64,000 bases of DNA from Blasia pusilla (lineage: Eukaryota): the NCBI GenBank assembly GCA_050084515.1, contig CM114271.1, forward strand, positions 7,874,001 through 7,938,000, in the 5' to 3' direction. The notes beneath the pieces were generated by a model. It had not been told where the DNA came from. It did no database searches and saw nothing but the letters and a program-made list of their open reading frames with translations. Numbering within the stretch: position 1 is the first letter of the stretch; each line of letters starts with the position of its first letter. Both the position numbers and the translations under genes were made by a program. Shown here piece after piece: positions 79 through 64,000 of the stretch.

Positions 79-5128
<5,050 letters not shown>

Positions 5129-18823: not shown

Positions 18824-20800
18824 ATGGCACAGACCTCAGAGGCTCGCCGGATTATCATTCCGTGCTCTGTCACTTCTCTAGATGACTTCAAACCAGTTGC
18901 TGGAAACGGAAATTCGCTGGAATCGTCCAAAATCCTGGAGGCTGTGAAAGTGGACAGTGGTAGTGAGCTTACACCGCGGTCTAGAGTCTCTTGGGCAAGT
19001 CAGGTGGAGGAAGAGCACGAAGCTACAGGTTGGACCGGTCTCCCGAGAAACAAGCACGAGAAAGGTGGGATGTCGAACGACAAGGTGGATGACGCAGCGA
19101 AGAAAAATAAGAAGAAGAAGAAGAAGAAGACCAAGGGCGCTTCCACTGCGGAAAATAGCTCTACGGTTGAAGGTAGTCAGAAATCCGAAGATAGAGTCAT
19201 TCCATCCGATGCAAAACTGGAGTCGAAAGCGAATTTATCGAATGGAAGTCATCAGCCAGCGGTAAACAATTCCACTCCCGAAAATGATATCTATAGTAAC
19301 CAGCCCGAAACACCCAATTCTTCGTCAAAGGCTGCTGCAAGCAATGGGGGTAATGGACACAGCAGATTTTCCGAGTGTGCAGGTAGTCCCAACGGTCGAA
19401 ACAAACCCAGCAACCTGGCTGGGACGTCAGTGTGGGTAACTAGGAACACCGAGGAGCTTAAAGCTGCCAGCTCACCGAAGGCAAAGCTGTCCTCTGGGTC
19501 TTCATGGCAGCCAGTCGGGGTCAAGGACACTTCAAATGAGAATGGAGACTCGGGTTGGGACACAGGCTCGAAGCAAGCAGGGTTAGACTCCCCGATGACT
19601 GGAGTGTCGGGCTGGGAAATGGCGGGTTCTCATCGAGGTCGAAAAGGAGCCGATCAGTCGGTGATATCAGCGGCAGCAGCACCTTACATTCCTCCATCTC
19701 CCAAAGGAAACTGGGACGAAATGCTACCCTCAGAGAACCCATCGCCGAATTGGGATGCTGGCTGGGAAGTGGCCAGTTCTCGTCGAGGTAAGAAAGGAGA
19801 CGACGTCCAGTCGAAGTCTTCCGGGGGATCAAAGTCTAAGGGACGAGGACAGCACTTGATCCCTAGACCGAATGAGCATGGTGGTAGAGGAGGAGCCAAG
19901 CAACGATCTGGTGAATGGGAGAAGGGGCCTCGTGGTCGAGGCGCCGGGGCCGTTCATGAGAAAGGTGGACGCCCAAGCCCCAGGAAGTCTGCAAGGGCAG
20001 AAGGAGGTAACAACTTCGGGTCGCTCCTCCAGCAACCAATTCAATCCGCTTGGGGGAAACCTCTTTTCAAATCACTTAGTAATGCCTCTAATCCCGATAC
20101 CACACCCTTGCCAGCTACTGCTCAAGGGTCAGGAATAGCTGCTAATACGAAGAGTCCTCCTGGCGTTCTGGAAAAACTTCTTTCCACGGAGCATGCTGAT
20201 TTGTTAGCTGATCATGTTGAGTTCAATGGGGGCTCAACCTCTATCAATGCTTGGAAAGGAGGATTTGCTGCCTTCTCTGGAAATGGGCCGTCAGTGTTTG
20301 ATGATTACCCGGGAAGTCTCTACTCTGATAGTCAGTGCTCAGATGGGGACCTTGACAGTGACACAATGAGCCTCGCATCTTTTGACTCTGAAGAAAGTCA
20401 CAAAAGTCATTCAACGCAGAAGAGGAACAAGTGGTTCCGCAACTTCTTTCAAGATCTGGAGGAGTTGACAGAGGATCAACTGCAAGAGCATGACCGTCAG
20501 TGGCATTGCCCTGCCTGTCAAGGTGGAGTGGGTGCGATTGACTGGTATCGTGGACTCCAGCCGCTGCTTGCACATGCAAAAACTGTCCGATCAAAGAGGG
20601 TGAAGCTACACAAAGCATTTGCTGAGGTCTTGGAGGAGGAAGTTAGAATCAGAGGAGCAGCTCCAGGGACTCATGGAAGTGGCAAATACGGGAAGTGGAG
20701 AGGATTGGGAGATGACAATGACAACCAAGACATTTTGATTGTTTGGCCACCCATGGTCATCATCCGTAACACTCAGCTAGAGCAAGACGAAGTTGACAAG
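18824..20800 (+). CDS. SGS3: SGS3 coding exon 1 (disordered N-terminus, zf-XS, start of XS)
   Basis: Long ORF 18806-20827; donor AAG|GT at 20800/20801. Confidence 0.92.
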
Positions 20801-29800: not shown

Positions 29801-32800
29801 ACATTCCTGATGTACAACCTGCATTATCAAGGGCTTGGTAACACACTTCAGCCAGATGCGATTCCTCTGTGAATCTTTCTTCTTGCTGGTCAGTCTCACC
29901 TTTTCCAAGACTTATCCCAAGTCGAATTGGAATTTTGGATGTCCTTGTTGATTTTCGAACTGGAGGTTGTTGCTCTGTGCCTGTAAGATAACTATCGGTA
30001 CTCTCTAATGGTACTTCTGATGTTTCTACATCAGGCTTTCTCCTTACGTAAAATCTGGTTGGAGATAATCTCCTTGGAGATTTATCAACCTCATCATCAT
30101 TTTCTTCAACCTTGATATCTTTAAAGAATGTCAACTCCTTTTCAAAACTGACTTCTGCAGTGCTAGTAATGCTGCTACCAAGATCTTTCTCATTGAAATA
30201 GACATCCCTACTTCTGATTGCTTTCTTAGTGCTTGGATTGAAGAGTCTGTACCCTTTACATCCAGGTTCATACCCTAAGAATATGCATTTCTCCGATTTG
30301 GAGTCTAGCTTTGTTCTTTTCTCCTTTGGAATCAAAGCATAAGCACAACACCCGAAAACTTTCAGGTGAGAGAGATCTGGTTTCTTACCACTCCATGCTT
30401 CCTCTGGTGTCAAGTTGTCCAATGCTGTTGAAGGACTCAAATTCTTCAAGTAGTTGGCAGTAGTTAGGGCTTCTCCCCAAAATTCTCGACCAAGGTTTGC
30501 TGTGGAGAGCATGGACCTGGTTCTTTCAACCAATGTCCTATTCAATCTTTCAGCTGCTCCATTCTGCTCTGGACTGCTCCTTGCAGTAACTTGACTCTTA
30601 ATTCCCTTTTGAGATAAGAAATCTTTGAACTGTTTGTTGATGTATTTGTTGAAATTTGTTAATATCTAGTTTAGTCATGCTCTAAAAATAGTTAGTCAAA
30701 TACTAACTTAGTTGGATACTAATTTAGTTAGCTAGAGATAACTTAGTGTTCCTCTATCTTTTAGGGTAACCTTGAATTAGGGCAATTCTCGAGTTAGGGC
30801 TAGCCACCATCTGTTATTTAGGGTATGGATCTGTTCAAGAAGATCCAAGGGCCAGAAGTGCTCACCCTCATGTATATAATGTTTCTGTTTAGAGAGCAGA
30901 AGCCAATTCTACAGCATGCACAGTTTTGGTGAGAACTCCTGAGGCTCTTGGTCCTGCTGCAGAGTGATCAGAGAGTAGGAAGAGGAGATTGAGACTAATT
31001 GCTGTGCTTGCTAGAGCCTCACTGGAAGGCAGGTGGTTTTGTCTAGTATGCTGATGGAGATTGTTTGTGCTCAATGGTGAGCCATGTCTGATCTCTGAGC
31101 TGGTGACATGTGAGGACTTGTAGTGTGAGTGCAAGGTGTGGCTGAGTAGAATCCTTCTTAGTATCTCTTAGATAGTAAGAAGAGTCACATCATGGTAGGG
31201 CTCTGATTTGGCAATAGAGACAAGAACTGATTTGCTGATTGTGTACAAGCTGAAATCATGGATGGTCTAGTTGATGCTAGCTCTGACTTTGTACAAGGAG
31301 ATACTTCTGCTGGTCAATCATATTCTCAGTATTCTCCACCTCCATCAGTTCTAAGCACTTTCACTTTCAGGCCAAGCTCATTCTCAACCTCATTGACAAA
31401 ATGCTGAAATCTGTCCAAGACTTCATCCTTTGTCTTCATCAAGTAGACAAACGTCCTTCTTGACTTGTCATCAGTGAAAGAAACAAAGTATTTTGCACCT
31501 CCGCGAGATGCTACTTTCATCGGTCCACACACATCAGAGTGGATGAGCTCAAGCTTTTCTCCTACTCTAGTTTTGGACTTCTTAGGTATAGAAGTTCTAC
31601 TCTGTTTCCCTTCTATACAACCTTCACAAAAGAATTCTGAACTATCAGGTTGTAAATGGAATCCAACAACCATCTTCTGGAGTTTCCTCATATTCTGAAT
31701 TCCCAGATGTGCTAGTCGCCTATGCCAAATGTCTAAAGAATTTTCTTCAGATCCAATGTTGGCTGATTCTTCATCAACATGTGTTGTATGAAGTTTATAA
31801 AGCTGATTGTTCACAATCGAAGCTTTTCCGATTTCAGTTGTATCATGATAAAAAATAATGCAATGATCATCTGTAAACAACACTTTGAAACCCTCACTTG
31901 CTAAGACTTTCACAGAGATCAGATTTTTTCCTATCTCAGGAATATAAAGGACATTTTTGAGAAGTAATTCTCTACAACCTTTCAGATTTAGATGAACTTC
32001 ACCTTTGGAAGAAGTTTCCAGCTTGTGATTGCTTGCCACTGTTACATTGCGTGTAGAGATTTTCTGAATGTTGCTAAAACAACTTCTCTTACCGCACATG
32101 TGAGATGTTGCTCCACTATCAATGTACCAAGCATCCCCAGAACTTGATTCGAATGGTACATCACCTTCCAAAGTCATGAATAGTTGATCATCATCGCTAT
32201 CTTCAACCACATGAGCTTTCTCGGAAGTGTTGAACTTTCCCAAGCTTTTCTTCTTGCCTTTCAGGTCTCTCACTTTTTTCCAACAGACCTCTTCTGTATG
32301 GTCCAGCATGTTGCAATATTTGCACTTGAGCTTCTTCTTGCCCTTTTCATTGTACCTTCTCTTACCAACCTTGGCAGCAAGAGCGATCTCATCAGATACA
32401 TTGTTCCTACCAGCATGCTTCGATTCTTCATTGATGAGTTGTCCGTTGACATACTCCAGGGTAAGTTTCTTTTTCTCTTGAGCTTCCAGCACAGTACTCA
32501 CAGTCTCAAAACTCTTAGAGAGAGTGCTGAGAAGTAGACCTACTTGGAAAAAATCGTCTACTTTGAAACCTCCTTCGATGAGAGTAGAAATCATCCCTTT
32601 CACCCTCGCCACATGAGAAGCAACAGGTTCAGATTTGTCCTGGCGCAAGTTCACAAGGTTCCGAAAAACACTATAGATGTGTCCTACAGATTCAGTTTGT
32701 AAGCCTTCTTTCACAGTCTCCCACATGGCATGAGCATTTGGTTTGTCACGGGCCATCTTTATAGCAGAGTCTCCCATGTTCATAACCAATGCAGCCATTG

Positions 32801-35800
32801 CCCTATTGTTGGATTTGATCCATTCTGCATCCAACAGTTGCATTGTTGTTGGTGCACATTGGACCACTTCCCAACAATCCTTATGACAACAAAGGATCTT
32901 CATTTCAAAAGACCACTTTCTCCAATTAGTAGCGTCTAATTTCTTGCTAACCCAGTGATCTATATCACTTCGTGGGTCCATAACCTAAAAGAAAAACAGG
33001 AGTAAACAAATACTGACTTTGATTACAGAGCTAATTTGTTTCTCCAAGCTCCAAGAAGTTACAGCAGATTACAGATACATGGAATAGCTTCACAGACGTC
33101 AAATAGGAAAGGAAACTCTGTACTTACCAAAACATGAGAGAGATCTGATTGATCTACTACTCATAAACTTCCTCCCTATAGGAAGAAGAGACTCTCTACA
33201 CTATTGATGCCTTTCCAAGCAGCACACTATCTCCTCCAGCAGCAGGTCCTCCAAAACATCAACTCCTTCTATCACAATAGGTCAGCCACCCAAGCTGAGG
33301 GGCAGCAATACTGAAGTTCGCAGGTCCAGGAGCTGGGAATAGTAGAGAAGAGAATAAGAGTGCTCTGGTAAGCCTCTTGCTCTTATAGGATAGCCCCTGG
33401 CTATCTTAAACCCTAAAAGTCTTTAACTAAGGCTAAAGGAGGCTATTATGAAACCCTAAAGGTTTTTAACTAAGACTAAAAAAGCTATTGCGAAAACCTA
33501 TAGGTAATAAACCTAAAAATAGAATTTTACTTATAGATAAAAAAAGTAACTTTTCATAGTAAAAAACAATTTTTTTTGCTCCTGATCTTACAGTTGCAAT
33601 TTCAACAAACCAAACACTTTCAATCTAGAAATGTCAGGTTTCTTACCAGACCAGCTCTTACTCTTCTGGAGTTACATTCTTCAAGGCCGCTGTGGGACTG
33701 ATGTTCCTCAGATAATTCGCTGTCATGATAGCTGCTCCCCAGAATTCTTGACCAAGCTTGGCATGTTGCAACATGCTCAAGGCTTTCTCTTGCAAGGTTC
33801 TATTCAACCTTTCAGCTACTCCATTTTGGTGGGGGCTGTCACGTGCCGTAACATCTTTTAATATCCCCTTGGCTGAGAGATATGCTTGAAAGTCTTTACT
33901 TGCATATTCTCCTCCTCCATCAGACCTAAGTCTCTTCACTCTTCGTTCAACTTGCCTCTCTGTCATATTGACAATGACAACAAATTTCTCTAGAACTTGA
34001 GCCTTGCTGATTATCAGGTACACAAAGCTCTTTCTACTCTTGTCGTCCACAAATGACACAAAATAGCGTGCTCCTCCTAGTGACTTTACAGGCATTGGTC
34101 CACACACATCAGAGTGAATCAAGTCCAATAATCTTTCAGACCTGTTAAGTGACCTTCTGGGAGCGGGTGACTTGTGAGCTTTCCCTTGCACACAAGCCTC
34201 ACAGAACTCAAGCTTCTGTGACTTCTCAATCTCCACACCACATGACATTCCTTGCAGAGCTCGAATGCTGTGTTCCGATAGGTGCCCCAATCTGCAATGC
34301 CACAGATTCAGCAAGCTCCTATTCTCAGTGAGATTTACCTGTTCCTCTGGATCACATTCCAGCAGTTTGAACAAATTTCCTTGTACCACTCCTCGGCACA
34401 AGACTTTCCCGTTTCTTTCAAGTGTGCAAGTCTGGTTTGAGTTCCAGAAGTGCACATCAATTCCTGCCTCCAATAATTTCTTAACTGACAACAGATTTTT
34501 TATGTAATCTGCAACATATAACACTCCATGCAGCTGCCATTTCATCAATTTGCTTTCATCAGCACTGAAGAAAATAGAAACTGAGCCAAACCCTCCCACA
34601 GGACTTAACAATCCAGAAGCACTTCTCACGTGATGATTACTTGCTGGTTTTAGGTCTGAGAACAACTCCTCTTGATAACAGACATGTGATGTTGCACCGG
34701 AGTCCACCCACCATCCACTGCTCCTCTTGAGATCTTTCTCACACGAGGCCATCATGAAAGAACAACAACTTTCATCAGATGTGTATTCAGTAGTCATCAC
34801 TCCAGCAACCTTTGCCTTATCCTTCTCCCTGTAGGAGGTACTTTGCTTCTCCATCAACTTCTCTTGATTCTTGACTGCAGATCCACTCCTTTTAACTTTC
34901 TCTCCCCTTTTCAACTTCTTTGGACAATTGCGAGCAAGATGTGAGAATATGATTGACCAGCAGAAGTATCTCCTTGTACAAAGTCAGAGCTAGCATCAGT
35001 TAGACCATCCATGATTTCAGCTTGTACACAATCAACAAATCAGTTCCTATCTCTATTGCCAAATCAGAGCCCTACCATGATGTGACTCTTCTTACTATCT
35101 AAGAGATACTAAGAAGGATTCTACTCAGCCACACCTTGCACTCACACTACAAGTCCTCACATGTCACCAGCTCAGAGATCAGACATGGCTCACCATTGAG
35201 CACAAACAATCTCCATCAGCATACTAGACAAAACTACCTGCCTTCCAGTGGGGCTCTAGCAAGCACAGCAATTAGTCTCAATCTCCTCTTCCTACTCTCT
35301 GATCACTCTGCAGCAGGACCAAGAGCCTCAGGAGTCCTCACCAAAACTGTGCATGCTGTAGAATTGGCTTCTGCTCTCTAAACAGAGACATTATATACAT
35401 GAGGGTGAGCACTTCTGGCCCTTGGATCTTCTTGAACAGATCCATACCCTAAATAACAGATGGTGGCTAGCCCTAACTCGAGAATTGCCCTAATTCAAGG
35501 TTACCCTAAAAGATAGAGGAACACTAAGTTATCTCTAGCTAACTAAATTAGTATCCAACTAAGTTAGTATTTGACTAACTACTTTTAGGGCATGACTAAA
35601 CTAGATATTAACAAATTTCAACAGTACGGGCTACTGCTGGAAAGGAAAATCAGCAACTGGGCTGAAGAAAAGAAGGTGCGAGCCAGAGGACAAGCAGCTT
35701 TCCGACACTCACATAGCACCCTGGACCACCTTCTCACACTCCGGGTACTGATTGAAAAAACTTCCAAGTCAAGAATTGGTCACAAGCCCGGTAAATTGTT

Positions 35801-41545: not shown

Positions 41546-43838
41546 ACTTTCTCTAATTTGTCGCATCTAGTTTCTTGTTAATCCAATGATCCATATCACT
41601 TTGTGGGCCATAATATAAAATAAACTGAGAAGTAAACAAATACTGACTTTGATGACAAAACTAATTTGTTTCTTCAAGTTCCAAGAAGTCACAGCGGATC
41701 ACAGATACCGTGAATAGTTTCACAATGTCAAATATGAAAGGGAACTTTGAACTTACAAAACAATGAGAGATCTGATTGATCTATTGCTCAAAAATTTCCT
41801 CCTTATAGGAAGAAGAGACTCTCAACATTATTGATGCTTCTTGAGGTAGTACACTGTCTCCTCCAGCAGTAGGTCCTCCAAAACATCAACTTCAACCACA
41901 ATAGGTCAACCACCCAAATGAAGGGGTGGCAGTTAGAAAGTGGGAAGAGAACAAGAGTGCCTCGGGAAGCTTCTTGCTCCTGTAGGAAAGTTCCATGCAG
42001 TGTGAACCCTAAAAGTCCTTAACTAAGACTAAAGGAGGCGATTATGAAACCTTAAAGGATTAGCTAAAAATCTTTAGAATAGATTCTTATTCATAGGTAA
42101 TAAAAGTAACATTTCATAGTAAAAAGTAAAAAGAAAAAAATAAATTTTGTTCTTGATCTCACAGTTGCAATTTCAACATTGCCACTCAACAGAAGTTCAT
42201 GCGTATCCCAATCAACTCCATGCATCTTAGGTGTTTAATCTTGGTGAGAGATTTTGTGAACATGTGAGTTGCCATGTCTTTTGTTGCATAGTGTTCTAAT
42301 TCAATTTCCACTCCAACCTTTTTTCGTATAAAGTGATGTTGTATATCCACGTGCTTTGTTCTCGTATGGTGTATTGGATTCTGGGTTAGATCAATACTTT
42401 CCCGATTATCTGCTTACACTTTTGTAGGTCTTGCTTGATGGCATCCAAAACCATCAAGGAGGGGTCAAAGCCATGTTGCCTTCTTGGTAGCATGTGTTAG
42501 AGCCATGTATTCTGCTTCACATGTGGAAAGTGTCATGGTGGATTTTCTCTTGCTGCTTCAACTAATAGCTCCTCCACACAACAAATAGCAATATGTAGAA
42601 GTAGATTGTCTATTGTCTAGATCTCTTGCCCAATTAGCGTCACTGTAACCAATCAGATCTACTTTTGCCTCTTTGTTATATGTGAGGCAAAAGTCGTGAG
42701 TGCCTTTCAGGTATCTCATCACACCCTCGACAACTTGCCAATGTTGCAAGCGAGGGTTGTGCATGAACCTGATCTAAACTCCCACTGTGTATGCAAGGTC
42801 TGGCCTTGTGGCAACCATTGCATACATAATGTAGCCCACTGCATTTTGATATGGTATTTTAGCCATATCATTCATCTCCAATTCAATTCAGTTTGAGGAC
42901 ACACTCCCTTGGTAAGCTTGATTCCTACCTCCATGGGTGTTCCTACTGGATTATAATCACCCATAGAAAAACGATCGATGACATTCTTCACATATTTGGT
43001 TTGGCTGATCTTGATCCAACCAACATCTCTATTTCTAGTGATTTGTATTCCGAGTAAATAATTGACTTCTCCTAGATCATCCATTTCAAAAGCTTCACTC
43101 AGTCCACGCTTAAGCCTATGCATAGTTTTTAGGTCTTCACATAGGAGTAACAAATCATCTACATACAGAGCTATGTAAACTACAATATTCAACTTGTGAT
43201 AAACACTGGGATTTGCCCTATTCTTGTGAAAACCCAACTTCTGAAAATAATCATCAATTTTGTCATACCAGAGTCTTGATGCTTGCTTGAATCCACATAA
43301 GGCTTTCTTCAGTAACCATACCTTGTCTCCATCCTTGAAACCTTCTAATTGTTGCATGTAAATCTCTTCATGCAATTCTCCATGGAGGAAGGCGGTTTTT
43401 ACATCCATTTGATGTATCTCCCAATTATGCTTTGTTTCCAATGCTAGCAAGCTTCTTATGGAAGTAAATTTTGCTACAGGAGCAAATTGCATAGTCAAGT
43501 CCTTCAATCTAATAGTAGCCTTTGGCAACTAATCGAGCTTAATACTTGACCACCTCATTTGTTAGGTCCTCTTTTCACTTTGACCCACTTGCAACCAATT
43601 ACATTCCTCATGGGTGGCAAATTCACCAACTCAAAAGTCTGATTTCTTTGGAAATATCCCATCTCTTCATGTACCGCTTGCTCCCACTAGATGACATCAT
43701 CTCTATTGAGAGCTTCTTCAAGACTTAACGGTTCATTAGCCTCTAACATTCTTGATGTACAACTTGCATTATCAAAGGCTTGGTAACACACTTCAGCCAG
43801 ATGCGATTCCTCTATGAATCTTTCTTCTTGCTGGTTAG
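41546..43838 (-). mobile_element. Older degenerate Copia B-family fragment (RT-RH, PPT, LTR, PBS, gag start)
   Basis: 42179-43838 is collinear with 28233-29895; LTR 41616-42178 is homologous to LTR-B; 41546-41615 is homologous to the PBS and gag start at ~32915-32985. Confidence 0.9.
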
Positions 43839-46720: not shown

Positions 46721-49700
46721 ATAGTCCCCTTCAGTTTTTACAGGAATTTTTAATTCCAAATATTTTTTGATGTTGTTGTGGATCATGAAGTTGTGCACAC
46801 TGTGCCACAAACAGTGCATAATTTGGAGTTGCGAGTAAAAAGTTATGGTCAATCTTGCAAAACTGCCATTGCTAGGCAATTTTTAGGGTTAAATTGTTCA
46901 AACCCTAAATCAGCCGCCACGCCGGCGGCGGCCGTCGCCATCATAGTCACTGTCACCTGTCAACGGTCAACCATCACCATCAACAGTCCGTCATCACCAT
47001 CAATAGTCCACCGTCCATCGACCACCGTCGGCCGTTGTCCACCCTTTGGTTGCCATTGCCGCCATTACAGAGTGGAGGGTCTTCCACGACGTTTGTTGAT
47101 TCTCTGACTTGCATCGCCACCACGTACTTTGTTTTGGACGCCAACTTCATCAAAGTTTCATCGTCAAGCACTAACGGAAAATGACCTCTAGTTATGGTGT
47201 TTGAGTTTTGATTTCATGGTGCTATGTTATGATTGGTAGCTGCTCGACGACGATCGAGTACCGTGCCGTGACGCCTGTAGCCGCAACGCGCCGCCGATTG
47301 CCGTGCCGTGCCGTGCCGCTTATGGCCGCACCGCACCATCTCGATCACGGAGTCGCACCGTCATTGTGGAGGATAGTGTGGATTTATTGTTGATTAAGGA
47401 GGGTATGCCATAGAGTGCCGCATCCCACCATCGAGGGCCGTGCCGTTTGTAGCCGTTCGGTGCCGCCTGGAACGCCGCACTGTTCTGTTGGAACTGCACT
47501 GTCTATCGAGGAGTTTTGAGCAGCGTTAGTATGGGAGGAGTACGACCTGCTGATTGGAGGAGTTGTCTCCATGATCGAGTTGGGGTTGAGATTTGCAGTT
47601 GCTGAGGAGCGACATCGACATGTGTTCAGGTTACCCATTTTGGTCCTTTACCCTGCACGCATGAGGGATGTCTGGAGTTGAGGGTAGGTTGTCAATGAGA
47701 TGATAGCCTGGTCGATTTTCTGCACCATGCCGCTTGTTGCCGCACGTTACACGTCTCGGGGAGGGAGAGTGTAGATCGAGTGCCGCATGTTTGGGATGAG
47801 TGATTGAGGGATTACTCGCGAGGTTGAGAGTGATCGTGTGAGGGGGGCACGAGGGCCATTACGGCGTCCTTTCAGGATTTTGAGAGGCGAGGTAGAGGAC
47901 CTAAGAGTAGCTCTGGAGGGTTTACCCGGAGTGGTGCGAGGTTTTGAGGGTCTCCACGTGAGAGACAAACTCGATCTCCTTCTGTGTTGTCTTCAGACAA
48001 GGGGGAGCATATAGAGAAGTTTGTGAGCACATCGCCACACATTGTGAGTGGTCCTACTAGTTGGGCGTACGAGATGGACGATCAAGGTAGAGGACCGCGT
48101 AGGTTTTCACGTGCAGTAGGCACGATTGAGTTGCACGATTTCATAGCAGAGTTTAGGAGTTGGTGCGACTCCCAGCGGGCCAAGAACTCTAGAGAGTTCA
48201 ACCCGTTTATAGCATGAAACAGTATGTTCCAGCATTTAGAGGGGGCGCCCATGGACGATTACCATACGTTCTCTCAGAGATATGCACGTGAGATGGAGGC
48301 GTGGAGGCTCTACTATGACCCACATTATGTGTCATGGATGGAGCCGTTCCCAGACGAGGAGGAGGAGTCAGGAGAGGTAACTTCCTCTTCCACTAGTGAC
48401 GTTGTAGGAGGGGTCACTCACACGGGAGCAGTTGCACCGTCTAGTCAGGTTCGTCCCAGGTTCAACCCTGTGGTTGAGTTCTTTGCTGAGTTGAGGGCGA
48501 GCTACCAAGGGGTACGGACGGAGAAGTTGAGGAGCATCCATGACTTCCAGAGGCGCCCGGGTGAGAGTTTGCGTGAGGCTTACACTCGCTTGTGCCGGTT
48601 GATCAACGTCACTCAGGGGGTGAATGGGGCTCAGGCTATCTAGTCATGGTACGCAATGCTGGACCGGACCCTGCGGACACGGGTGCGGGAGGGGGTGCTC
48701 CTTATGAACACCTCCCCTATGTTGAGAGATGCTCTACGGAGGAGAGTGTAGCCACCATGGGTTCTGGGCGAGAGTAGTCACGATTGCCTGCACTACCTGT
48801 GCAGCAACGTGGACTCCGAGATAGTTTGACTGTGGCACCACGAGCTCAGGGAGGATACCGGGGGGCTGTGCCACAGAGACCTGCGCCTTCATATGCGGCT
48901 CAGCAGCAGCTGCCTACTATTACTTGTTGGTCATGTGGTGAAGCCCATCATTAGCACGATTGCACTCGTCAAGGTCATGGACATATGCCTCAACATGGAG
49001 GAGGAGATGGTGTTGCACCAGGAGGTTATCAGTGTGACTATTTTTCAGAGGTATGGTCGTACACGTGCCATTTGTTTCAGTTTGCATCCTGAGTTACGTC
49101 CGGACTAAAGGCCAGAGAGGGCACTAGAGCGAGTAGCCGGTCCGGGTGGGCCTAGAGATTGTGCACCATGTGCTCCTGTTGGGGGACAAGAAGCTGGAGT
49201 TTCCCGACAGGATGGTGGAGTTGCCCGTGGAGGACGTAGAGTACCATCACCTAGACGCACCGAGGAAGACGCCAGACGTGAGGCTGGGATGGCTGCTCAG
49301 ATACAGCAACTACAGGAGCAGATTGCTGTTATGACATTGAGGTTACCCAATGTCGGATCCGTGGCATCAACATCATATGGAGCAGCCAGAGATCTGGAGG
49401 ATCCTGGTTGGATATGCGGGGTTGCCCAAATGGAGACAGCCGCAGTTGTGACGCGTGGAGCAGCCGCAGAGTTGGATCCACAGCGAGGGGAAGCCAGGAA
49501 AAAGACTAGGCTTCCTCAGTCTTTCACGTTGTCCGAGGCGATGAGGACCCCATCGATGGGTCCTGATCAGAGTTCCTAGAGAGTTGGTGATGTTGTTGGT
49601 GTGCAGGAACAAAGGGCGATGGGAGAAAAGAGTGCGACGACTCCTATTGTTGATGCTGAGGAGGGACATGTGTTAAGCACGTTGTTGGGGGCGGCCGCCG

Positions 49701-50764
49701 TCCTATACCGCACTCCTTTATTTTCAGCTTCCGATGTTATGAGGTTGGGGGGTACGCCCGTCGAGGCTTTTTGGCTGGCCGCTTCACTATATGAACGCGG
49801 AGTTGGAGTTCTTGTATAACGTTTAGAGGTGATTGCAGAGGAGATGATGGACCTGTCCTTGGAGCGGATGCTCGGGCCGTCCACATCATATTCATGGCAG
49901 GTTGCGGCTGCTAGGATGGCGGAGATGCCCGCTAGACCCGCGATAGAGCGTGCCATGGCTTCTCTTGGTGTTGTGTTGTTGGATAACCAAGGAGAGGTCT
50001 TCCAGTTGATGAGTCCCGGAGGTAAAGCTTTTATTCCGCAGCGCGTCTTGTTGGATTCAGAGCGCACAACCACTGATGTTGGGGAAAGCATCATTCAGAG
50101 GATTGGGCTTGACGAGAGCCGATGTGGAGCGTTGTCCATTCCGGATACAGACATCCTTGGGTGGAGTGAGTACCACACAGTATATCACCCGACAACATGT
50201 CGTGGTGAGGATTCGCCCGGTACATCCTACAGATGAGTCCGTGGTGCGAGCCAAGGCGATAGTGACTGATGCAGAGTCCTACGACGTCTTGGTTGGTGGA
50301 GCAGTGTTATACCCAAGGAGTTTCCTCTGGATTACTGGGAGGAGTCAGCGTCCTACAGATCAGGATGGCAGTCAGGTGATGGGCGCCTTAGCTTATTACC
50401 CGTTTGATTCATAGGTGTAGTGATTGAGCAACGGCCAGGAGAGATGGCGACCTTAGCAACATTTAGCAGTGCCATCACTTGGCCTAGTGATTTGATTGAG
50501 GGACATGTCCATGCAGAGGATATTCCTTTTCTTAACATTTCTATGGAGAGAGGCGTTATGGTAGCCGCATCATTCCGTGGAGGAGAGGTGCCGATGTGGG
50601 GCTTGACTAAGGAGCTTCGACGATTGGCAGATGAGCACGTGCAGACCGCGTGGAGCGAGGCATTTTCAGTGGAGCGTGACGGGTCTGAGGAACCCGATGT
50701 AGCAAGGAGTGATACGATGATACCCTTGGATATCACACCCATTGTGTGGTGTATCTCGGAGGAG

Positions 50765-51720
50765 GCTATTCGAGTGTTAGATCTCTTTGGAGGGATTAGC
50801 ATCGGGTTAGCTGTTTTTTTGCAGGTATAAGTGCGCGTACAACAATACCTGTATGTGGAGAGTGATGATGTTGCGAGGCGCGTCTCACTACAATATGTGG
50901 TGCGGTTACGCCTTCGTTTTCCCGACTTATTGTCTGCGTCCGCGATACAAGGGTACTAGAGTTCCCTATCGAGGGATATTTCGTTGCTGGGGGCAGAGGA
51001 CTTAGACCGGTTAGGCACCATTGATTTGGTCATTGCCGATTGGCCATGTCAAGGCCAATTGAGTGCTGGATGAGGCAGCGGGTTGGCTGACACTCGATCC
51101 AGGTTGTTTTGGGAGATGTTGAGGGTCTTACGGCAGTTGTAGGAGCACTAGTCTCGTTCTCCAGCCTACATTTTGGAGAATGTGCCGATCTTAGGAGACT
51201 TCAGATCACGGGTGGTGACGAGTGCTCATCAAGTGCATGCCTAGATTGGCCCAGCATTGTTCTTGGATGCGGCGAGTGTAGGTTCTAGAGCCCATCGCCC
51301 GCGTCTATGGTGGACCAACTTGGTGGCCCATGCGGTATTATGGAGGGCGTATGCGAGAGTGGAGTGCCCCTCCCATTTGTTAGTGGATTCCATTCAGGAT
51401 CCAAGTTGTCGCTCACAAGCAATGAGGCACGATGATCGACCACCGTTGATTGTGGTCAACAGGGTAGGCAAGCCACGGGCAGCCTTTCCCACGTTTGTGA
51501 GTTTTCCCGCTTCCTATGCATACAAAGAGGCCAGTCCTGGCTTGGTTTGGGATGACCACGTTCAAAGTTTGGTGGAGCCCAACGCCGACAAGAGAGAGGG
51601 GGCGATGGGATTTCCCATAGGAGTGACGGCAGTACCGTCAGTTTCAAAGGCATCATGACGCCATGTCTTGGGTCAGGCGATGGACCTGAATTGCTTGACA
51701 TGGATCTTCAGCTTGGGAGT
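50765..51720 (+). pseudogene. DNMT3-like C5-cytosine DNA methyltransferase domain inside Gypsy pol (copy 2)
   Basis: IRVLDLFGGIS (I), YLYVE (II), DLVIADWPCQG (IV), YILENV (VI), DAASVGSRAHRPRLWWTNL (VIII), EPNADKREGAMGFP (IX), LGQAMDLNCLTWIF (X); several in-frame stops. Confidence 0.92.
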
Positions 51721-53635
51721 GGCTCAGCAGCGGCGGATGAGATCGCCACAGATCACAGTGGTTACGTTCGTAAGCCCCATGCTTACTGAGAGGGTGGAGG
51801 CAGTGGCTGGGGTCAAGACCCGAGTAGATCGACAAACCATGCGAGATCGGGAGAGACACCCTTAGACTTCTTGGGATGTTTTGCAGGTACGTCAGGAGAT
51901 GATAGCCATAGCATCAAGCGTGGTTCCGCGCACTGCATGTGGAGGAGATCAGAGTTTGCACTTAGCTGTAGGAGAGCGGTCGAGTGTCGTTGTTTGAGAC
52001 GGGGTTGCACCATAGCAACCACCGATATCCGCGCCGGAGAGTCCTACCGTAGTCACGATGGAGACTTGGGAGCCAGATATGGGCCTTAAGTTGATTGGAG
52101 GAGAGCGGCACCGAATACATCAGTTCCTAAGGAGTTATAGGAGATGCTTTGCGTTTAGCATGGAGGATTTTGGTACGCTGAAGGGACCAGGGATCTGCAT
52201 TGAGTTTTCGAGTGATACGCCGATCTTTCGACGACCCTACAGGTACAGTGATATGGAGAGGGCTCTGATTCAGAGTAAGAGCCAGGACTTAGTTGGAGCA
52301 CGACTAGTGGAGATGTCGCATGGGGAGTATGCATCTGCCATTGTCCCGCCCGCCAAGAAGGATGTGCATGGCAAGTGGACGGATAGATGGATGTGTGGGG
52401 ATTACCGACCTATCAATCGGCAGACGAAGTCCGATAGGTATGCCATGCCCACCCCTGAGGAGATCTTTGATGCGATTGATCACGCAAAGGTCTTCAGTTT
52501 ATTGGATTTGCAAGTCGGATACCATCAGCTGCCTATCAAATTGGAGGACAGGCAAAAGACGGCATTTTGGGGCATCGATTCTCACGGGAAGGATTGTTTG
52601 TATCAATGGCAGTTCTTACCATTTGGGTTGAAGAATGCCTTGGATGAGTTTCAGAGGGTCATGGATAGGATCTTGGTTGGTTTGGATTTTGGTAGGTATT
52701 ATATTGATGACATCGTAGTCTTTAGCGCCGCGGTTGAGGAGCATGAGCGACATCTAGTGAAGGTGTTTTGACGATTGCAATTACATGGGCTGAAGCTACA
52801 TCCAGGCAAGTGCAAGTTCTTTTACAACTAGATTGAGTACTTGGGTCATAGGATATACCCATGGGGCCTTGGTGTTCAACAGACAAAGGTAGAGGCTATC
52901 TCACGCATTCCACGCCCTACATATGTGAGCCGTGTTCGCGCATTCATGGGATTGGCGAACTTCTATCGGCGGTACGTCAAGGGATTCAGTTCGATTGCAA
53001 AGCCGCTGACCTTGCTAACCAAGGTGGATCACAAGTGGCACTGGGGGCATTTCAATTGCTCAAGGACACGTTGACGTCTGCGCCCATCTTGAGGAGACCG
53101 ATTAGGGGGCGTCCTTTCCAGTCGCACACAGATTGGAGCATGTTGGGGCTTGGAGCGGTGCTCACCCAGCATGATGATGAGGATAGAGAGTTTGTGGTGG
53201 CTTACGCTAGCCACTCGAACAACACTGCAGAGGCGAAGTACAACTTATATGAGGGTGAGTGCTTGGCTGCAGTGTGGGCTGTCATGCATTTCAGGTGTTA
53301 CTTATCCGGAAACCCCTTTACCATCATCATTGATCACCAACCACTGAAGTGGTTGATGGTGTCCAACAAGCTTACAAGGAAGCTTGCAAGATGGGCTTTG
53401 TTGTTGCACGAGTATGATTTTCAGGTGGTACATAGACCTAGGATGCTCAACCAGGATGCAGATGGGTTAAGTCATAACCCATGCCCGAGTCACCGAGATG
53501 CAACTGGAGCTCGATGGCATGGAGAGAGTGATGAAGAGTCAGTGCCAGGATGGCACGCGTCAGCCTATTTAGGCATGTTGGCTATGGAGAGCCAGAGTGT
53601 GGAGACTTCGATGGCGAGATCTAGTGGAGAGTCCT

Positions 53636-54852
53636 TGTGATACCCACAATTTTGTACTCTTGAAGAATATATCTTTTTATTCAACGAAGACTCTTGTATA
53701 TTATGATTTTGATTATGATTATTTATTATTATGAGGAAGAATGAGTGAATCATGAAGCTCCTGGGACAAGGTAGAGAGATGGAAGATCAAGGATTTGCCT
53801 TAGAGGAGAGGAAAACGCAATAACGAAGTCCCAAGACTCAGAACGAAGATGTACGAAGCTCAATGAAGATGTACGAAGCTCTGTCTATGAAGTGCTTCGC
53901 TACATAACGAAGCATCACGAAGAAAAGAAGAAAGAAGTACTTCGCTCTTGTACGAAGCACGAAGCACCAGAAATAAGAACGAAGCATGGAGTACTTCGTC
54001 CTCATGAAGTCCAGCGAAGCGAAGCTAAGAAGGACTGTGATTTCAAGCCACACAAGTTAGAACAATTAAACTAGGAAAGGGCGCGACCCTTTGTATCAAA
54101 TTGGTAGTTAGAACAGTTTTGTACGGCGGATTCACAGGGATCGTAGGAAAAGCTAAGAGAACCATAGATCTAGGTAGTTAGAAATAGTGAAGAGACACTA
54201 GCTTCATCAAGAACTTTTTTAATCTTTGGATCACTTCCACTCCAGCGAATATTTAGGAAGCAAAGCAGAAGCCATAATCATCATTCTCTTACGAAGTCCT
54301 TATGTTGTAGGAATGGTCCGAGCAAGAGAGTAGTACCCTCTCGAGCTTGTATACACTTTGAAGCTTTCTCGTTCTTGATGGAGTAGTAAAACAATCATTC
54401 ATTCATTCATTCTGATGTGCGATGCTTATGTCTGAGTATTCTTTTTGGGTCTACAGAGTGAAGGGTGAATCAGGCGAACCTTTCTCATCAGTGAAATAAT
54501 CAACATGAGTTGTAGGAAATCTGTTTGACAGAGAGTAACCTGCCGAGACGGATTGAGTTCCAAAAGTAGGAGAAGTCAGCTTTTGTGTTGAGGTCTCTGT
54601 GAGGTTTCTTAATGTCGAGAGGAAAATCTACCTGAACATGCTGTCAATTCCACTAGACAAAATGGAGAAAAGATCCTTTGGTACTAAGAAAGATCAGAAG
54701 ATATTGATAAGACATTGAATGTAACTCATCCATAGTTAAATACAGCTATTACAACATAATTGTATTTCCGAACTCTCTTTTCATCAAACAATGATCCTCT
54801 TGGGGATCGAACTTATTAAACGACTATAAAATAGAAACACTTGTACATTACA
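53636..54852. mobile_element. Solo LTR, family C (copy 2), inserted in Gypsy copy 2
   Basis: TGTGATACCC...CATTACA; TSD GTCCT (53631-53635 / 54853-54857). Confidence 0.95.
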
Positions 54853-54907
54853 GTCCTTGGATCCTGGGGCCAATGAGGAGACCATAGGTGGTCGAGATAT
54901 TCATGAT

Positions 54908-59757
<4,850 letters not shown>

Positions 59758-60483
59758 GGGGGCTGGTATTCTGGCAGGAGAGAGTAAGAGAGGAGAGGAA
59801 GAGAGGAAGAGAGGAGAGTCTCTCTTAAAAAAAAAGGGCCAAATCCGCCTCCTCTCTTCAAAATTTTTGACATATTTGAAAAAAAATTTTGCTTTCAAAT
59901 TCAAGAAATATTTAGAAGAGAGTAGGTAGTGGTCCACATTTGGCCCTAGAAAAACCTAATTTTTCGTGGGGGCGAAAAAAAAGTATACATCATAAGACCA
60001 CTACAAACATTTTTCCATCACTCTCCATGTGAGCCTATTTCTTAACATTACCTGTCTCGGTCTACAAAAAGCAGTGCCCATGGGTATTTTTGTTGGAGGA
60101 CCACCTGAATGCCAACCTCTCTTTTTTGCGAGGGATTGATTGTTATCGCATCATGGCCTCCCTCAATTGCCCCATAACCAACTTTTCGTTGGTTATGAAT
60201 GGTGTCTGCTCAAGACCAACTTTGTGAAATGTGAACACATGAGAGGATAATTGAACCAAAAGATTGTTAGTATGCTGGAGTAAAGAGGAACGATGTCCCT
60301 TCATTCAAATCCTAAAGCGAGAAACCGAGAAGTCGCACCCTCCCAACCCGTAAGAAAGCTCACCATAAGAAAGGAAAGATTTTTAGAAGTGATTTTCTTC
60401 CACCCTGCACCACGACAATCTAACGGGTTGGGAATCCGAAATTGGCAATCCGACGGGTAGTAGGAACCCGCACATCTTAGACA

Positions 60484-61565
60484 AGAAAAGAAGCCTACAA
60501 TCTGGTTTGACGAATGTAGGGAACGAGCCAAAAGTTAAGAAGCCCGCCACAATGCGCCGGTTGGTCTCACAGGAAAGAGTCCGATCACTCAAGCAAATCA
60601 ACTTTGTGGGAATCCGACGACTTGCCGAAATGGTTAAAAAGTTGCAGTGGGCAAAAAGCAAAAAGTTGCAACCCGTCAGAATCATACTGGTTGCAAAATT
60701 GTAATTCTGAGTAGCTAAAAGAACACAATCCACAAGTCCAAAAACATATTCCAGAAAACTTTTACAAACACCATTATGGGTTGAAAAAATCTCATCCTTT
60801 ATTACCTTCGAAGGAACCTCGGAAATGTACATTTTACCTAGTCTATGATTTCTTCAGCCTCGTCATCTACAAATTTACTCCTTACTCTCCTCGGTGACAG
60901 TACAAAAGGAATGTCTTGGGATACAAGTGGCTCCTCTGGCCGATTGTAGACGGGGATCGAAAATGTTGGCGAATTCAAGAGCCTTGGCCCCTCCCTAGGT
61001 ACGCCATAACGATCCCATATAACCTGATTTGAGTCCCACCGCCTTCCTCGGCAGTATACCTTGTACGCTCTACAATGTGACACCCATCCAGTATCAATAT
61101 GTGCTCCGTCCTTGGTAATACCATTATGGCAATTGCACAAGTAGTAGGAATCCAACACGTCTGAGAGAAGAAAAGAAGCCTACGCCTGCCTTTACGAGTT
61201 GAGGGGAAGCTGCCAAGGGAAGAAGCCCGCCAGACTGCCTCTTAAGTTGGACCAACAGGGAAAGAGTCCGATCAGGCAACCTATTGGAATCCGACATGTT
61301 GCTTGGAAGTGGTAAAAAGGTGTTGTCGTCAAAAAGTGAAAACTTGCAAGCAGGAGAAATCTGACGGGTTGCAAAATAGAAGTCCGCGGAGTACATAGAC
61401 AATCACATTCGAAAAGACATAAAAAATGTTCAGCAAACTTTTACAAGCACCACCATCGTTCAAAAAAATCATCTCCTTTATATCATTCAAAAAAAAGCTC
61501 GAAACTGTACATTTGATCTATTCTATGAAATCTTTTGCCTCATCATCAAATAACTCCCTACTCCA
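60484..61565. repeat. Diverged direct repeat of ~400 bp (about 60484-60880 and 61168-61565)
   Basis: Shared ordered blocks AGAAAAGAAGCCTAC, AAGAAGCCCGCCA, GGAAAGAGTCCGATCA, GGAATCCGAC, AAACTTTTACAA, GTACATTT..CTA.TCTATGA..GCCTC.TCATC. Confidence 0.75.
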
Positions 61566-61603
61566 AACGCTGCAGTCAAGTTGGGTCCTTGAGTTCTTTG
61601 AAC

Positions 61604-64000
61604 TCACTCGTCATCGTCCGAGAGCTCTTGCAAAATTACTTTCGGCCTTGCCCTCCCGATTTTCGAAATCGTTGGAAGTGATGATGGAGTCACTACCAAT
61701 GGTGGGTCTGGAACCGGAGCTCTCGGCTTCGGTGGAGAGTTGTACGCCCCAACGAGCCTTTCGTATTCTGCCTTTTCCTCCTTGCAAAGGTCAAACAGTT
61801 CCTGCCTTCCCTCGAGGCAGAGAATGTTCTTGCCACTCAGCCAGGCGCCTTTGATACTTGCCCCTGAAAGTTCCACTAAGTCGAACACCAAGTCACCCGG
61901 CCTTGACCAGAGCTCGATGAGCGTTTGCATCAGGGCTGGTGACTTTTCCCTTCCTCCCAGAAGTGGGGTACCGTCTTGCATGTAAATTCCCGGGGGGGAA
62001 TTATACAAACTATCTAATTTGTACCCATCTGAACATGGATCCACAGGATCCTAGATCTTGAACACCTGGAAATTGTGCTCGGGCCGAACGAAGCAGTAAA
62101 CGTAGGAGTGGTCCATCTGTAAAGAAGCACATTGGAAACAATGTCAGCAACTTGGCATAATGTGCAACACGTCACCGAAGAAGTCGGCTTGACCCTAGAG
62201 AACTTTTTCAATTACTAACTTTGGATCAACCTGTCGGAGTCCGACGGGTTGTTTTGTCCCTGACCAACCCGTCGGAAGGCGACGGGTTGCTGGCCTAGAG
62301 CAGCCCATGGTCGTCTAAGAGCAACCCGTCGCTTTCCAACGGGTTGCAGCTTTCCGGAAACACAGGGAAAAACCAAAAGCAACTGCAACCCGTCGGGTTC
62401 CGACGGGTTGCAGGTACACCACGGCTTTCCCTGTGTTTCTGGGAAAGATGCAACCCGTCGGAAATTGACGGGTTGCTCTTAGTTGAGCATGGGCTGCTCT
62501 AAGCCAACAACCCGTCGCCTTCCGACGGGTTGCTCATGGAGAAAAACAACGGAGATATACTATCTGAAATTTACACGCATTGAGCCTTACCCGAATTTGA
62601 AAATATATTTGAGATTGTACTACAGGAATTGAGCCTTACCCGAATCTGACTCGTCGTAGATCGGAGTGGGTACTCGTTTTTTATGATCCACAATTGCGCC
62701 GTCCTCCACTTTAGCGACCTCTTGACACATTGGAGGTTGAAGAGCTCGTCCTCGCTCCCTCCAGTCAACACTAAGAAGCAGCCCCTGTCACTCAGATAGG
62801 CGTCTGCAAAGGAGAACAATAGCGCGATTTGGTCATAAGAGAGCGGCACATTCCACTCAGGTACCCCGTCCGACGGATTCTCGCCCCACAGTCGCAACCC
62901 CGAGGGCAGATCAGCGATCAAGAGATCCACCGCAACCTCTTCGACCACTCCATTCACCGTTCAGGCAGCGTGCCCGTTTCGTTGGAGCTTCCGTCCCAAA
63001 ATTGTCAATTTATCAATAGCTGGTGTCAACGCTTGAGAACTGAAGCTTTTCAGCTCATCCAGTAAAGGAGTGAACTGAAGGAGGACGCTTGTCCGGGTCG
63101 TTGTTTCTCTGTGTCTTCCCAAGGATGATGGACTGTATTCTCCTTGGGACAACACTGGCACCTCTTGCTTCCGCTTTTCCCGAGTCTGCAGACGGCTTGT
63201 CGGGGTCTCTATGACCTCAGACTCTAGTGGGGTTTTTTTCACCAAGGACCTGGTCCGACCCTCTCTCCCCGCTCGCCCGGACGATTCTGCCTCTAGCCTT
63301 GAATCTTCAGCCTCTCTTTGGGAAGACTCGGCCTCGAAATTCTTCCCTCCCCTCGCCTTGCCTTTGAGACCCGTTGTGGATTTGTCTTTGGCTGTGCGGA
63401 CCTTGGAAGCCAACTCAGCTGTCTGGTGGGCTTGCTCTTCTGCATCTCCTCCTCCGAAGTCTTCAAGCTGCACAAAATTGGGGATGTCGTCTTGTCCTGA
63501 GGCCACTGCATCATGAAGCACTCGTAAATCCTTCTCGGTGATGTCTTCAGGGTCGTTGAAGTCAAGCCAAATGGGGCAATTCTCCACCTCCCAATCGGAC
63601 ATGTGTTGCGCCATCTCCATGTCGTACATGGAGAATGTCTCTCCATCAGGTGGCGAAGCCCACAATTTCAAGGCTGTTGGTAATTTTCCCCAGGTACCTG
63701 CATTCTTACAATGGACGAGGTACTTGAAGACCATCCGTTGGGCAACTTTTACTCAAACTGAATCGGCCGTCTGCTCTTGTAGATCTCGCTTCTTCTTTGC
63801 TTGATCCCTTTTGTTCCCATAGATTTCTTCATCAAGCTCTGCCTGAGGGAGGACGCAAACCTTGAACATTGTCTTGAATCCTGGGTTTTTGATTGGCTTG
63901 TCCCGGATGTCGTCGAGGCAAACCTCAAAATCTACAGAATTTTCCAGGTTTGCTTCATCCGGAATGGGCTCTAATCTTTTGAGCTCCGCTTGCAGACCGT
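61604..64000 (-). pseudogene. Interrupted gene with a C-terminal beta-class N4C/N6A DNA methyltransferase-like domain; runs off the window
   Basis: One frame from the window edge to ~62640 with two in-frame TGA stops; VDLLIADLPSG (cf. DLIxxDPPY) ... LSDRGCFLV; probable intron from 62639 (CGG|GTAAG); then EKSPALMQTLIELWSRPGDLVFDLVELSGASIKGAWLSGKNILCLE (cf. KPxxLxxxLIxxxSxxGDxVLDPFxGSG). Confidence 0.72.
62227..62550. repeat. Nested palindrome: six 25-bp CAACCCGTCG-N5-CGACGGGTTG-type hairpins, five of them within one ~300-bp inverted repeat
   Basis: Units start at 62227, 62265, 62322, 62386, 62451 and 62508; outer arms 62248-62396 / 62400-62550 are imperfect reverse complements. Confidence 0.92.

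Follow-up and report, generated by a model that had tools for sequence, protein, structure and literature searches.

A decayed copy of an abundant, repeat-borne gene in Blasia pusilla with a probably methyltransferase-derived C-terminal domain

We analysed a stretch of 64,000 nucleotides from Blasia pusilla (contig CM114271.1, positions 7,874,001 to 7,938,000; the whole stretch is called the window below), and in particular the truncated gene that lies on its minus strand at 63998-61604. This gene is probably a decayed copy of an abundant gene carried by a repeat, with a C-terminal domain derived from a beta-class DNA methyltransferase whose active site is altered or dead. The visible part comprises 623 codons in two exons, and would represent the 3' two-thirds of one copy of a very abundant repeated gene in a land-plant-like genome. 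An earlier note on the same DNA had described a prokaryote-type N4C/N6A methyltransferase-like gene with an intron, in-frame stops and a frameshift, probably associated with a transposon; its claims are taken up where the results bear on them.

Gene structure and methyltransferase likeness

The 523-nt intron begins with GTAAGG, carries a pyrimidine-rich tract followed by CAG at its 3' end, and sits between complete codons. Since its length is of the form 3n+1, exons A and B stand in different genomic frames, so that the frameshift of the earlier note is only apparent. Removal of the GT-AG intron joins the exons in phase 0 and restores a gap-free alignment to the homologues P0006 and P0011, in keeping with the intron that the note had called. 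The suspected in-frame stops are three, TGA at 63755-63753 and 62963-62961 in exon A and TAG at 62053-62051 in exon B, and they make the window copy a pseudogene; the natural stop codon is TGA at 61606-61604. The long N-terminal part (63998-62961), described beforehand as of no known family, stands ahead of both methyltransferase-like motifs and runs off the window end. Behind it, exon A holds the motif-IV-like strand DLLIADLPSG at 62927-62898 and, further on, VPxWN and LxDxG, which are conserved in the family; exon B holds the motif X/I-like region EKSPALMQTLIELWSRPGDLVFDLVELSGAS (EKSP...DLVELSGAS) at 61948-61856. Both strings on which the note had relied, DLLIADLPSG and, downstream of it, the SAM-binding-like (S-adenosylmethionine) EKSP..LIELWSRPGDLVFD..SG, were recovered exactly on the minus strand and in the order of the beta class. 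This permuted order, with motif IV N-terminal to motif I, is found in the window and also within single fern proteins.

The methyltransferase likeness exceeds chance only when the libraries are taken together, four of them agreeing with scores that are each weak. In Pfam, exon B matches PF01555 with an expectation value (E) of 0.0039 over profile positions 165-220 of 221, and exon A gives no PF01555 match. Every one of the seven families matched in PADLOC is a methyltransferase, six of them being of Type II and one an orphan (best E=4.6e-4), and the four PDB sequences found at E<=10 are without exception beta-class DNA adenine methyltransferases (5hek/5hfj and 1nw8/1eg2; E 0.36-0.72). A tblastn search of 50,697 phage genomes matched 205 records, with a best E of 2e-3. 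Of the top 20 rows, 18 match a gene that is named as a methylase or methyltransferase, the other two being an 'unknown' and an unannotated record; among 40 rows spread evenly down the ranking, 30 bear such a name and 10 are hypothetical or lack annotation, and no name among the 40 conflicts with it. Three matched phage proteins were scanned and all are genuine PF01555 members (E<=6.4e-32). The spliced domain shares with three phage enzymes 34-39% identity over 67-87 residues, in the C-terminal half only (EKSP..LIEL.S.PGDLV.D...SG). NCBIfam gave nothing for P0001 or P0002 and nothing relevant for five homologues. The prokaryote-type, amino-methyltransferase-like domain of the earlier note is in this way upheld by Pfam, PADLOC, PDB and phage matches, and likewise by the fold searches described below.

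Relatives of the gene were sought by a full HMMER (phmmer) scan with exon A against 1.84 billion representative proteins, which returned 11 proteins at E<=1e-3 (1.7e-22 to 9.1e-4), two of them at E<=1e-10. Ten of the 11 were looked up: five come from Riccia sorocarpa, one from Riccia fluitans, one from Adiantum capillus-veneris, one from A. nelumboides, and two are unnamed Logan proteins. They are annotated as 'hypothetical proteins', such as KAL3687003.1 and KAL3686416.1 of Riccia sorocarpa, KAL2653794.1 of Riccia fluitans, and, in the ferns, KAI5060227.1 of A. capillus-veneris and MCO5570031.1 of A. nelumboides. No Pfam domain is recognised in them, and no relatives other than such liverwort and fern proteins were found. 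Identity between the window and these relatives is only 20-37%. Common to both is the middle-domain pattern A-x-R-x-x-F-[RK]-[YF] ... W-E-x-x-N-C-P-x-W-x-D, and the window carries the family features in order, that is FRY..WExxNCPxW and then D-hydrophobic-P-x-G ... VPxWN ... LxDxG. The middle domain belongs to no family of Pfam, NCBIfam or PADLOC; in a protein atlas its best score was 0.81, with Transposase_28 at 0.79, below the level of a lead.

Intact family members measure about 650-1200 amino acids in ferns and liverworts. The fern proteins P0011, P0015 and P0017 extend into a C-terminal half that is collinear with exon B; since a single chain of these proteins comprises both halves, exons A and B belong to one gene. 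This half is more degenerate in Riccia P0006, and in the ferns it comes closer to a generic ExGxGxG. The gene models P0003, P0007 and P0008, as well as the read-through of the window, stop two to three codons past a Val (GTN) codon at the aligned intron donor. Such ends are what an unrecognised donor would give, which suggests a shared intron site. We propose that the family protein consists of an N-terminal region with no known match, a middle domain FRY...WExxNCPxW and a C-terminal methyltransferase-derived domain, which would go back to a DNA amino-methyltransferase of the beta class (PF01555-like) from bacteria or phages and which is split here by a conserved intron.

Other searches added little to this family. 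A word-indexed protein search with the family alignment A2 returned eight proteins, seven of Adiantum and one unnamed ENA protein, and missed the Riccia relatives. In the same search P0001 had no match and P0002, at longer lengths, none at E<=0.1, blanks which are weak because the Riccia relatives escaped that search. Scans of metagenome contigs with two ORFs (open reading frames) of the window found no relative. In P0006 (around 250-265) and P0014 (around 85-100) there is a W-[DE]-G-N-H-[QH] string which we take to recall the DGxHR/DGQQR of ParB/sulfiredoxin-fold domains. Such domains are often fused to bacterial methyltransferases. For these N-terminal regions of P0006 and P0014, no supporting match was found in Pfam, NCBIfam or PADLOC.

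The fold predictions agree modestly with a methyltransferase descent. The AlphaFold2 model of the N-terminal half of the domain in the window (107 residues, with the family alignment) has a mean predicted local distance difference test (pLDDT) of 82.7 and a predicted template-modelling score (pTM) of 0.71. In Foldseek it is matched best by CcrM, at E=0.2 with prob 0.90 and TMq 0.51, the two being 24% identical over 89 columns; M.BceJIV stands at ranks 13 and 21. For the model of the fern homologue P0011 all the rows listed are class-I SAM-methyltransferase folds, with a best E of 4.1e-4 and low template-modelling scores (TM-scores), among them M1.HpyAVI, CcrM, M.BceJIV, a Type III Mod subunit and METTL3. 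When the two halves of the window domain were modelled as two chains together with SAM, with no alignments, the prediction scored 0.58 (runs 0.64, 0.54 and 0.58) against 0.02 for the best of three controls; the runs share at least 56% of their contacts, and the pLDDT of the partner is at least 53. In a calibration made with no small molecules, 51 of 78 solved complexes attained the mark, as did 2 of 108 mismatched pairs, and scores of 0.60 or below held only 5 of the 78 solved complexes and all 4 of the mismatches that passed (of 180). The predicted packing, which lends weak support, may reflect a likeness to solved methyltransferases and nothing more.

The Pro-Pro-aromatic unit of amino-methyltransferases holds the flipped base, and the canonical motif I of the beta class is the SAM-binding loop F-x-G-x-G. 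Both had been described beforehand as non-canonical in this gene, rightly so. At motif IV the window reads DLPS in place of (D/S/N)-P-P-(Y/F/W), and the 12 homologues compared with it read DFPT, DFPT, DMPS, DMPI, DIPT, DIPT, DLPT, DLPK, DWPF, DIPN, DVPE and DFPI. The form D-[LMIFWV]-P-x is thereby present in 13 of 13 family sequences, Pro-Pro in none, and an aromatic fourth residue in one (P0008, DWPF); several of the 13 are close kin, so that they do not stand for 13 independent events. At the position of motif I the window has V-E-L-S-G after a conserved D and the ferns have E-M-G-C-G/S-T, and P0017 gives a weak Methyltransf_23 match there (E=0.099). With the Pro-Pro-aromatic unit wanting in all 13, canonical N6-adenine or N4-cytosine catalysis would be lost or changed. 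Within the N-terminal half, D17, P19 and G60 do not vary and D12, P34, W36 and D58 vary hardly at all, and we argue from the conservation of this block that some function has been retained. The family protein is probably not a working DNA-methylating enzyme. We suggest that it keeps a Rossmann-type fold and possibly SAM binding, with no canonical N6-adenine or N4-cytosine methylation, and that its role for the repeat may be that of an accessory factor which binds DNA or SAM, or else that of an enzyme with changed chemistry.

The region of the donor and that of the TAG in exon B have further peculiarities. A 49-bp tandem duplication (62572-62600 and 62621-62649; TTCGG|GTAAGGCTCAAT) copies the exon-intron boundary and gives a second donor-like site 49 nt within the intron. 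The TAG at 62053-62051 is an extra position relative to P0011 and P0006, which read through, and the gene models of two homologues, P0004 of Riccia fluitans and P0010, terminate at the aligned column. RNA depth is about 10 times higher downstream of this TAG than on exon A, and the C-terminal half may be a separate short product or come from a separate transcript. A second short intron at the TAG was considered and rejected, there being no GT donor; the sole nearby GT..AG pair is 37 nt long and runs into a stop.

Copy number, transcription and alternative explanations

Raw reads of one genomic and three RNA runs of the same species label were placed on 59500-64000 at a likeness of at least 85%. 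From the genomic run about 1/100 was sampled, that is 12,434,590 reads or 1,966 Mb, and 27,764 of them (0.22%) fell on this region: 364 at a likeness of 99% or more, 3,925 at 95-99%, 14,385 at 90-95% and 9,090 below 90%. Across the twelve exon bins the summed depth ranges over about 920-1210 and averages about 1036; for the bins of the intron the range is 420-570. With an exon depth of about 1000 from 1,966 Mb there are about 0.5 copies to each Mb of the genome, which puts the family at hundreds of copies if the genome is of 1 Gb and at thousands if it is larger. It is not a low-copy host gene, and the comparison with a single-copy host gene, set out beforehand as a check on the mobile-element claim, came out on the side of a multi-copy family. 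Since a large proportion of the copies contains the intron, multiplication would have taken place at the DNA level or via unspliced RNA. Within the 64-kb window no second copy of the gene was found by tblastn, the best other match having E=1.6. At least 95% of the reads differ from the window at 61776, 61839, 61872, 62018 and 62033 (among the 40 listed of 912 variant rows), and therefore the window copy carries private changes.

The family is also transcribed. A search of sequencing runs listed no RNA run as containing the stretch, and the evidence for transcription comes from the raw reads of the three RNA runs. In the two bins covering 61614-61915, RNA depth in the three runs is 17-32 with first mates on the plus strand and 0-3.9 with first mates on the minus strand; in the two bins covering 60859-61160 the same bias is seen (19-32 and 0-2.7). 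On exon A the depth is only about 1-5. If the libraries are stranded in the usual way, this is sense RNA of the minus strand. Most RNA reads are less than 95% alike to the window, so the expressed copies are other, diverged ones. A joint 61115->61595 is supported by 34 DNA reads and by 17, 27 and 10 RNA reads; together with a consensus of loose read ends it indicates that the expressed copies do not have about 430 nt that follow the stop codon in the window copy. This extra stretch of the window copy is R2 (61127-61563). The ends of the joint, AC..TA on the coding strand, do not resemble splice sites. Near 60797 the RNA molecules come to an end. Within the transcribed 3' segment, a 113-codon frame at 60838-61179 matches no protein family.

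A number of results weigh against the reading of a decayed, repeat-borne, methyltransferase-derived gene. No single sequence score reaches a curated threshold. The PF01555 match, which had been called for as a check, was found on exon B and its 17.6 bits fall below the gathering cut-off of 26.7; among the homologues, no PF01555 was detected in ten scanned at E<=1 or in five at E<=10, and no Pfam methyltransferase other than the Methyltransf_23 of P0017. The PDB search with profile A2, which had lost the columns of the C-terminal half by then, returned no methyltransferase and only a low-complexity TBP match. In hhalign, the family and four phage methyltransferases were aligned over the C-terminal half alone (probability 47%, P=2e-4), with a template profile too shallow for judging the N-terminal half. 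In the fold check proposed earlier, CcrM leads for the N-terminal half of the window domain and the rows listed for P0011 are all methyltransferase folds, but the model of the window half has no Foldseek match at E<=0.001, most of its rows being other alpha/beta folds. The P0011 model is itself poor overall, with a mean pLDDT of 51.7 and values of 60-86 at residues 380-505. No RNA read spans the splice 62640|62116 among the 15 listed of 128 joints, and whether the three stops are private to the window copy cannot be read from the 40 variant rows. The conserved new motif set could also be read as that of an active enzyme with a different chemistry and not a dead one. Finally, the visible 4.2 kb contain no transposase, recombinase, reverse transcriptase, terminal repeat or target-site duplication. 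As no such hallmark was seen and the 5' part lies beyond 64000, it is copy number by itself that speaks for 'mobile'; of the transposon association claimed earlier, the highly repeated family stands by read depth, and the machinery, termini and target-site duplication were not found.

A more far-reaching reading, possible although we hold it only tentatively, is that of a new mobile-element gene family of liverworts, ferns and Blasia in which the active site has been rebuilt (D-hydrophobic-P-x-G, VPxWN, LxDxG) and kept under selection as part of a functional SAM-dependent or DNA-binding factor with a new chemistry or a new role. The protein might then, for example, mark or shield the own DNA of the element against host silencing, in a family that is still transcribed and makes up about 0.1% of the genome, and the case would be a second, independent co-option of prokaryotic methyltransferases by eukaryotic repeats, in Streptophyta, from which the DAM-LTR elements, the LTR class of the Dam-type route, are reported absent.

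It is, on the other hand, unlikely that the gene is not mobile by itself, being either a host family spread by segmental duplication or a passenger gene or gene fragment amplified by a Helitron, a Pack-type DNA transposon or an LTR (long terminal repeat) element. Such an origin would fit the missing transposition machinery, the retained intron, the annotation of the homologues as ordinary genes on chromosome-scale contigs, and a depth that is uneven along 59800-64000. It fits less well with a depth of about 1000 in all exon bins at 5-15% divergence, which is the typical pattern of a transposable-element family, with the multiple, fragmentary and truncated gene models of Riccia and Adiantum, and with an element-specific hairpin motif clustered in and after the gene.

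Much less probable is a working, or recently working, N4C/N6A DNA methyltransferase related to MpDN4MT1 or N4CMT. The beta-class order, the likeness of the C-terminal half to PF01555 enzymes and the occurrence of relatives in liverworts and ferns, lineages with motile sperm, would agree with such an enzyme, and the conserved, pocket-like motif set suggests a function. Set against this are the D-hydrophobic-P-x of all 13 sequences, where the known enzymes have SPPY, DPPY, NPPY, DPPY/F or DPPW (PMC8885841), and hundreds to thousands of copies as against the two tandem host genes MpDN4MT1a/b (10.1101/2021.02.12.428880). The domain moreover scores below the Pfam cut-off, and the window copy has three stops. 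A likeness by chance, with the ORFs belonging to an unrelated repeat protein, is very improbable: each E-value is weak (4.6e-4 to 0.7) and the N-terminal half has no methyltransferase match at the sequence level, but four independent libraries yield DNA methyltransferases and nothing else, with every match falling in the same C-terminal motif region, and beta-class methyltransferases stand at or near the top in the fold searches of two models. Least probable of all is that the gene is left over from the integration of a large DNA virus, or of a virus-like element, bearing a methyltransferase, since, for all that the nearest named sequences are phage methyltransferases and that algal giant viruses are described as rich in such enzymes (PMC7248222), the copy number is in the hundreds to thousands, a spliceosomal intron is probably shared with distant plants and no viral genes lie nearby in the window.

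Repeats and neighbouring features

The intron harbours an array of palindromic hairpins of about 320 nt whose outer arms extend over 104 nt with 88% complementarity. A palindromic half-site of 11 bases, CAACCCGTCGG, paired with CCGACGGGTTG across the loop of each unit, occurs 14 times in the window at up to one mismatch, all within 60450-62532, against 0.31 expected. Single hairpin units are found in R1 and R2 as well, two copies of a duplication downstream of the gene (Table 1). The hairpins may represent either a small inverted-repeat element that is nested here or repeats of the element itself to which proteins bind. R1 and R2 each close a short minus-strand frame with an acidic tail, FVDDEAEEIID* (60838-60870) and LFDDEAKDFIE* (61525-61560). 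The ORFs downstream of the gene (60383-61402) matched no protein family and show no likeness to the family proteins.

The wider context is repeat-rich, as the earlier note had said, with copia, gypsy and LINE (long interspersed nuclear element) ORFs. Position 59758 may be a terminus of the element, as suggested by 270 reads with loose ends there (agreement 0.31), but the adjoining LINE has its 5' end at exactly 59757. This LINE is a separate unit, with matches at 1628-1903 and 54908-54944. The XS zinc-finger frame is probably the sole ordinary host gene of the window; we take its domain type to be that found in plant SGS3/FDM-like RNA-silencing factors. Four 'air metagenome' runs contain small shares (0.06-0.12) of the words of the stretch, which are no evidence of habitat.

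Table 1. Positions of the features of the gene and of its surroundings in the window (MTase, methyltransferase; UTR, untranslated region; RT, reverse transcriptase)
Feature	Position	Strand	Basis or remark
Exon A	62640..63998	-	truncated by window end; middle domain, low-complexity linker and MTase-like N-terminal half
Conserved middle domain	63549..63752	-	family alignments A1/A2
MTase-like domain, N-terminal half	62640..62960	-	AlphaFold2 model, Foldseek, family alignment
Intron	62117..62639	-	523 nt, GT..AG, phase 0; sequence and collinearity with homologues
Exon B, MTase-like domain, C-terminal half	61607..62116	-	PF01555, PADLOC, PDB and phage matches
Palindromic hairpin array within intron	62224..62545		six CAACCCGTCGG-loop-CCGACGGGTTG units
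Segment absent from transcribed copies and a minority of genomic copies	61116..61594		joint 61115->61595, loose-end consensus
Probable 3' UTR, directly after stop codon in transcribed copies	60797..61115	-	RNA depth, strand bias, 'begin' site 60797
R1, older copy of R1/R2 duplication, with hairpin motif	60443..60887		self-BLAST; motif at 60450 and 60669
R2, duplicate of R1	61127-61563		self-BLAST, 69.7% identity over 456 nt
LINE-like copies (three)	2074-4347; 54848-55597; 57085-59757	+; -; -	
GC-rich gypsy-type element	49109-53640	+	RVT_1, RT_RNaseH
Ty1/copia-type ORFs, apparently nested or tandem	25795-34983, 42872-43528	-	RVT_2, E ~1e-76, integrase-like part
673-codon frame with XS zinc-finger domain	18806-20827	+	PF03470, E=3e-6

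Comparison with known systems

Prokaryote-type DNA amino-methyltransferases are rare in eukaryotes, and N4CMT, MpDN4MT1 and the Dam domains of retrotransposons have each shifted views of epigenetic marks. The family described here, to which roughly 0.1% of the genome belongs, has no name in any library searched, and we found in the literature no earlier description of a beta-class methyltransferase in plant repeats. The window copy is inert and is valuable as a pointer to this family. If intact copies bind SAM or DNA, they may represent a repeat-encoded epigenetic or anti-silencing factor of early-diverging land plants; if they are inert, they would offer a clear case of a methyltransferase fold put to another use.

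The gene resembles the beta-class DNA amino-methyltransferases (CcrM, M.RsrI, M1.HpyAVI and the adenine methylases of lambdoid phages) in that motif IV precedes motif I and in that these enzymes rank first or close to first when the two models are compared with known folds. It differs from them by DLPS in place of DPPY/SPPY and by VELSGA in place of FxGSG, and also by the setting of the domain, which is split by an intron within a much larger eukaryotic protein, exists in hundreds to thousands of copies and is represented in the window by a dead one.

With the N4CMT of bdelloids and MpDN4MT1a/b of Marchantia it shares a prokaryote-type, permuted amino-methyltransferase domain that has acquired introns in a eukaryote. 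In N4CMT the PF01555 domain is clear, the motif reads SPPY and N4-methylcytosine activity has been demonstrated (PMC8885841). Unlike these low-copy host genes, the family of the window is high-copy, reads DLPS and scores below the Pfam cut-off, a separation that is made by description only; neither MpDN4MT1 nor N4CMT is among the 11 relatives of exon A.

A further lead concerns the giant transposons of fungi. In language-model features, residues 140-420 of Riccia P0006, a region that lies outside the window, come nearest to DUF3723 (PF12520) clusters with a score of 0.97 over 194 of 256 features, and 12 of 30 matches carry the DUF3723 family set; this is a lead only. DUF3723 is an unexplained auxiliary gene of the Starship elements (10.1101/2021.12.13.472469). 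By hmmscan no PF12520 was found in P0006, P0009 or P0014 at E<=10, a result that concerns these three proteins.

Retrotransposons carry methyltransferase domains of the Dam type; Dam itself belongs to the alpha class. In the DIRS 'MT' and DAM-LTR elements the domain bears an Asn-Pro-Pro triplet, lies in or beside reverse transcriptase or tyrosine-recombinase ORFs, has been compared with T4 and E. coli Dam, and is reported absent from Streptophyta in the case of DAM-LTR (10.64898/2026.05.21.726589). They are alike to the gene of the window as prokaryote-derived amino-methyltransferase domains multiplied in a eukaryotic repeat with an activity that is unproven. The gene of the window does not belong with DIRS or DAM-LTR: devoid of Pro-Pro, and of a reverse transcriptase or recombinase in its visible 623 codons, it follows the beta order and bears an intron.

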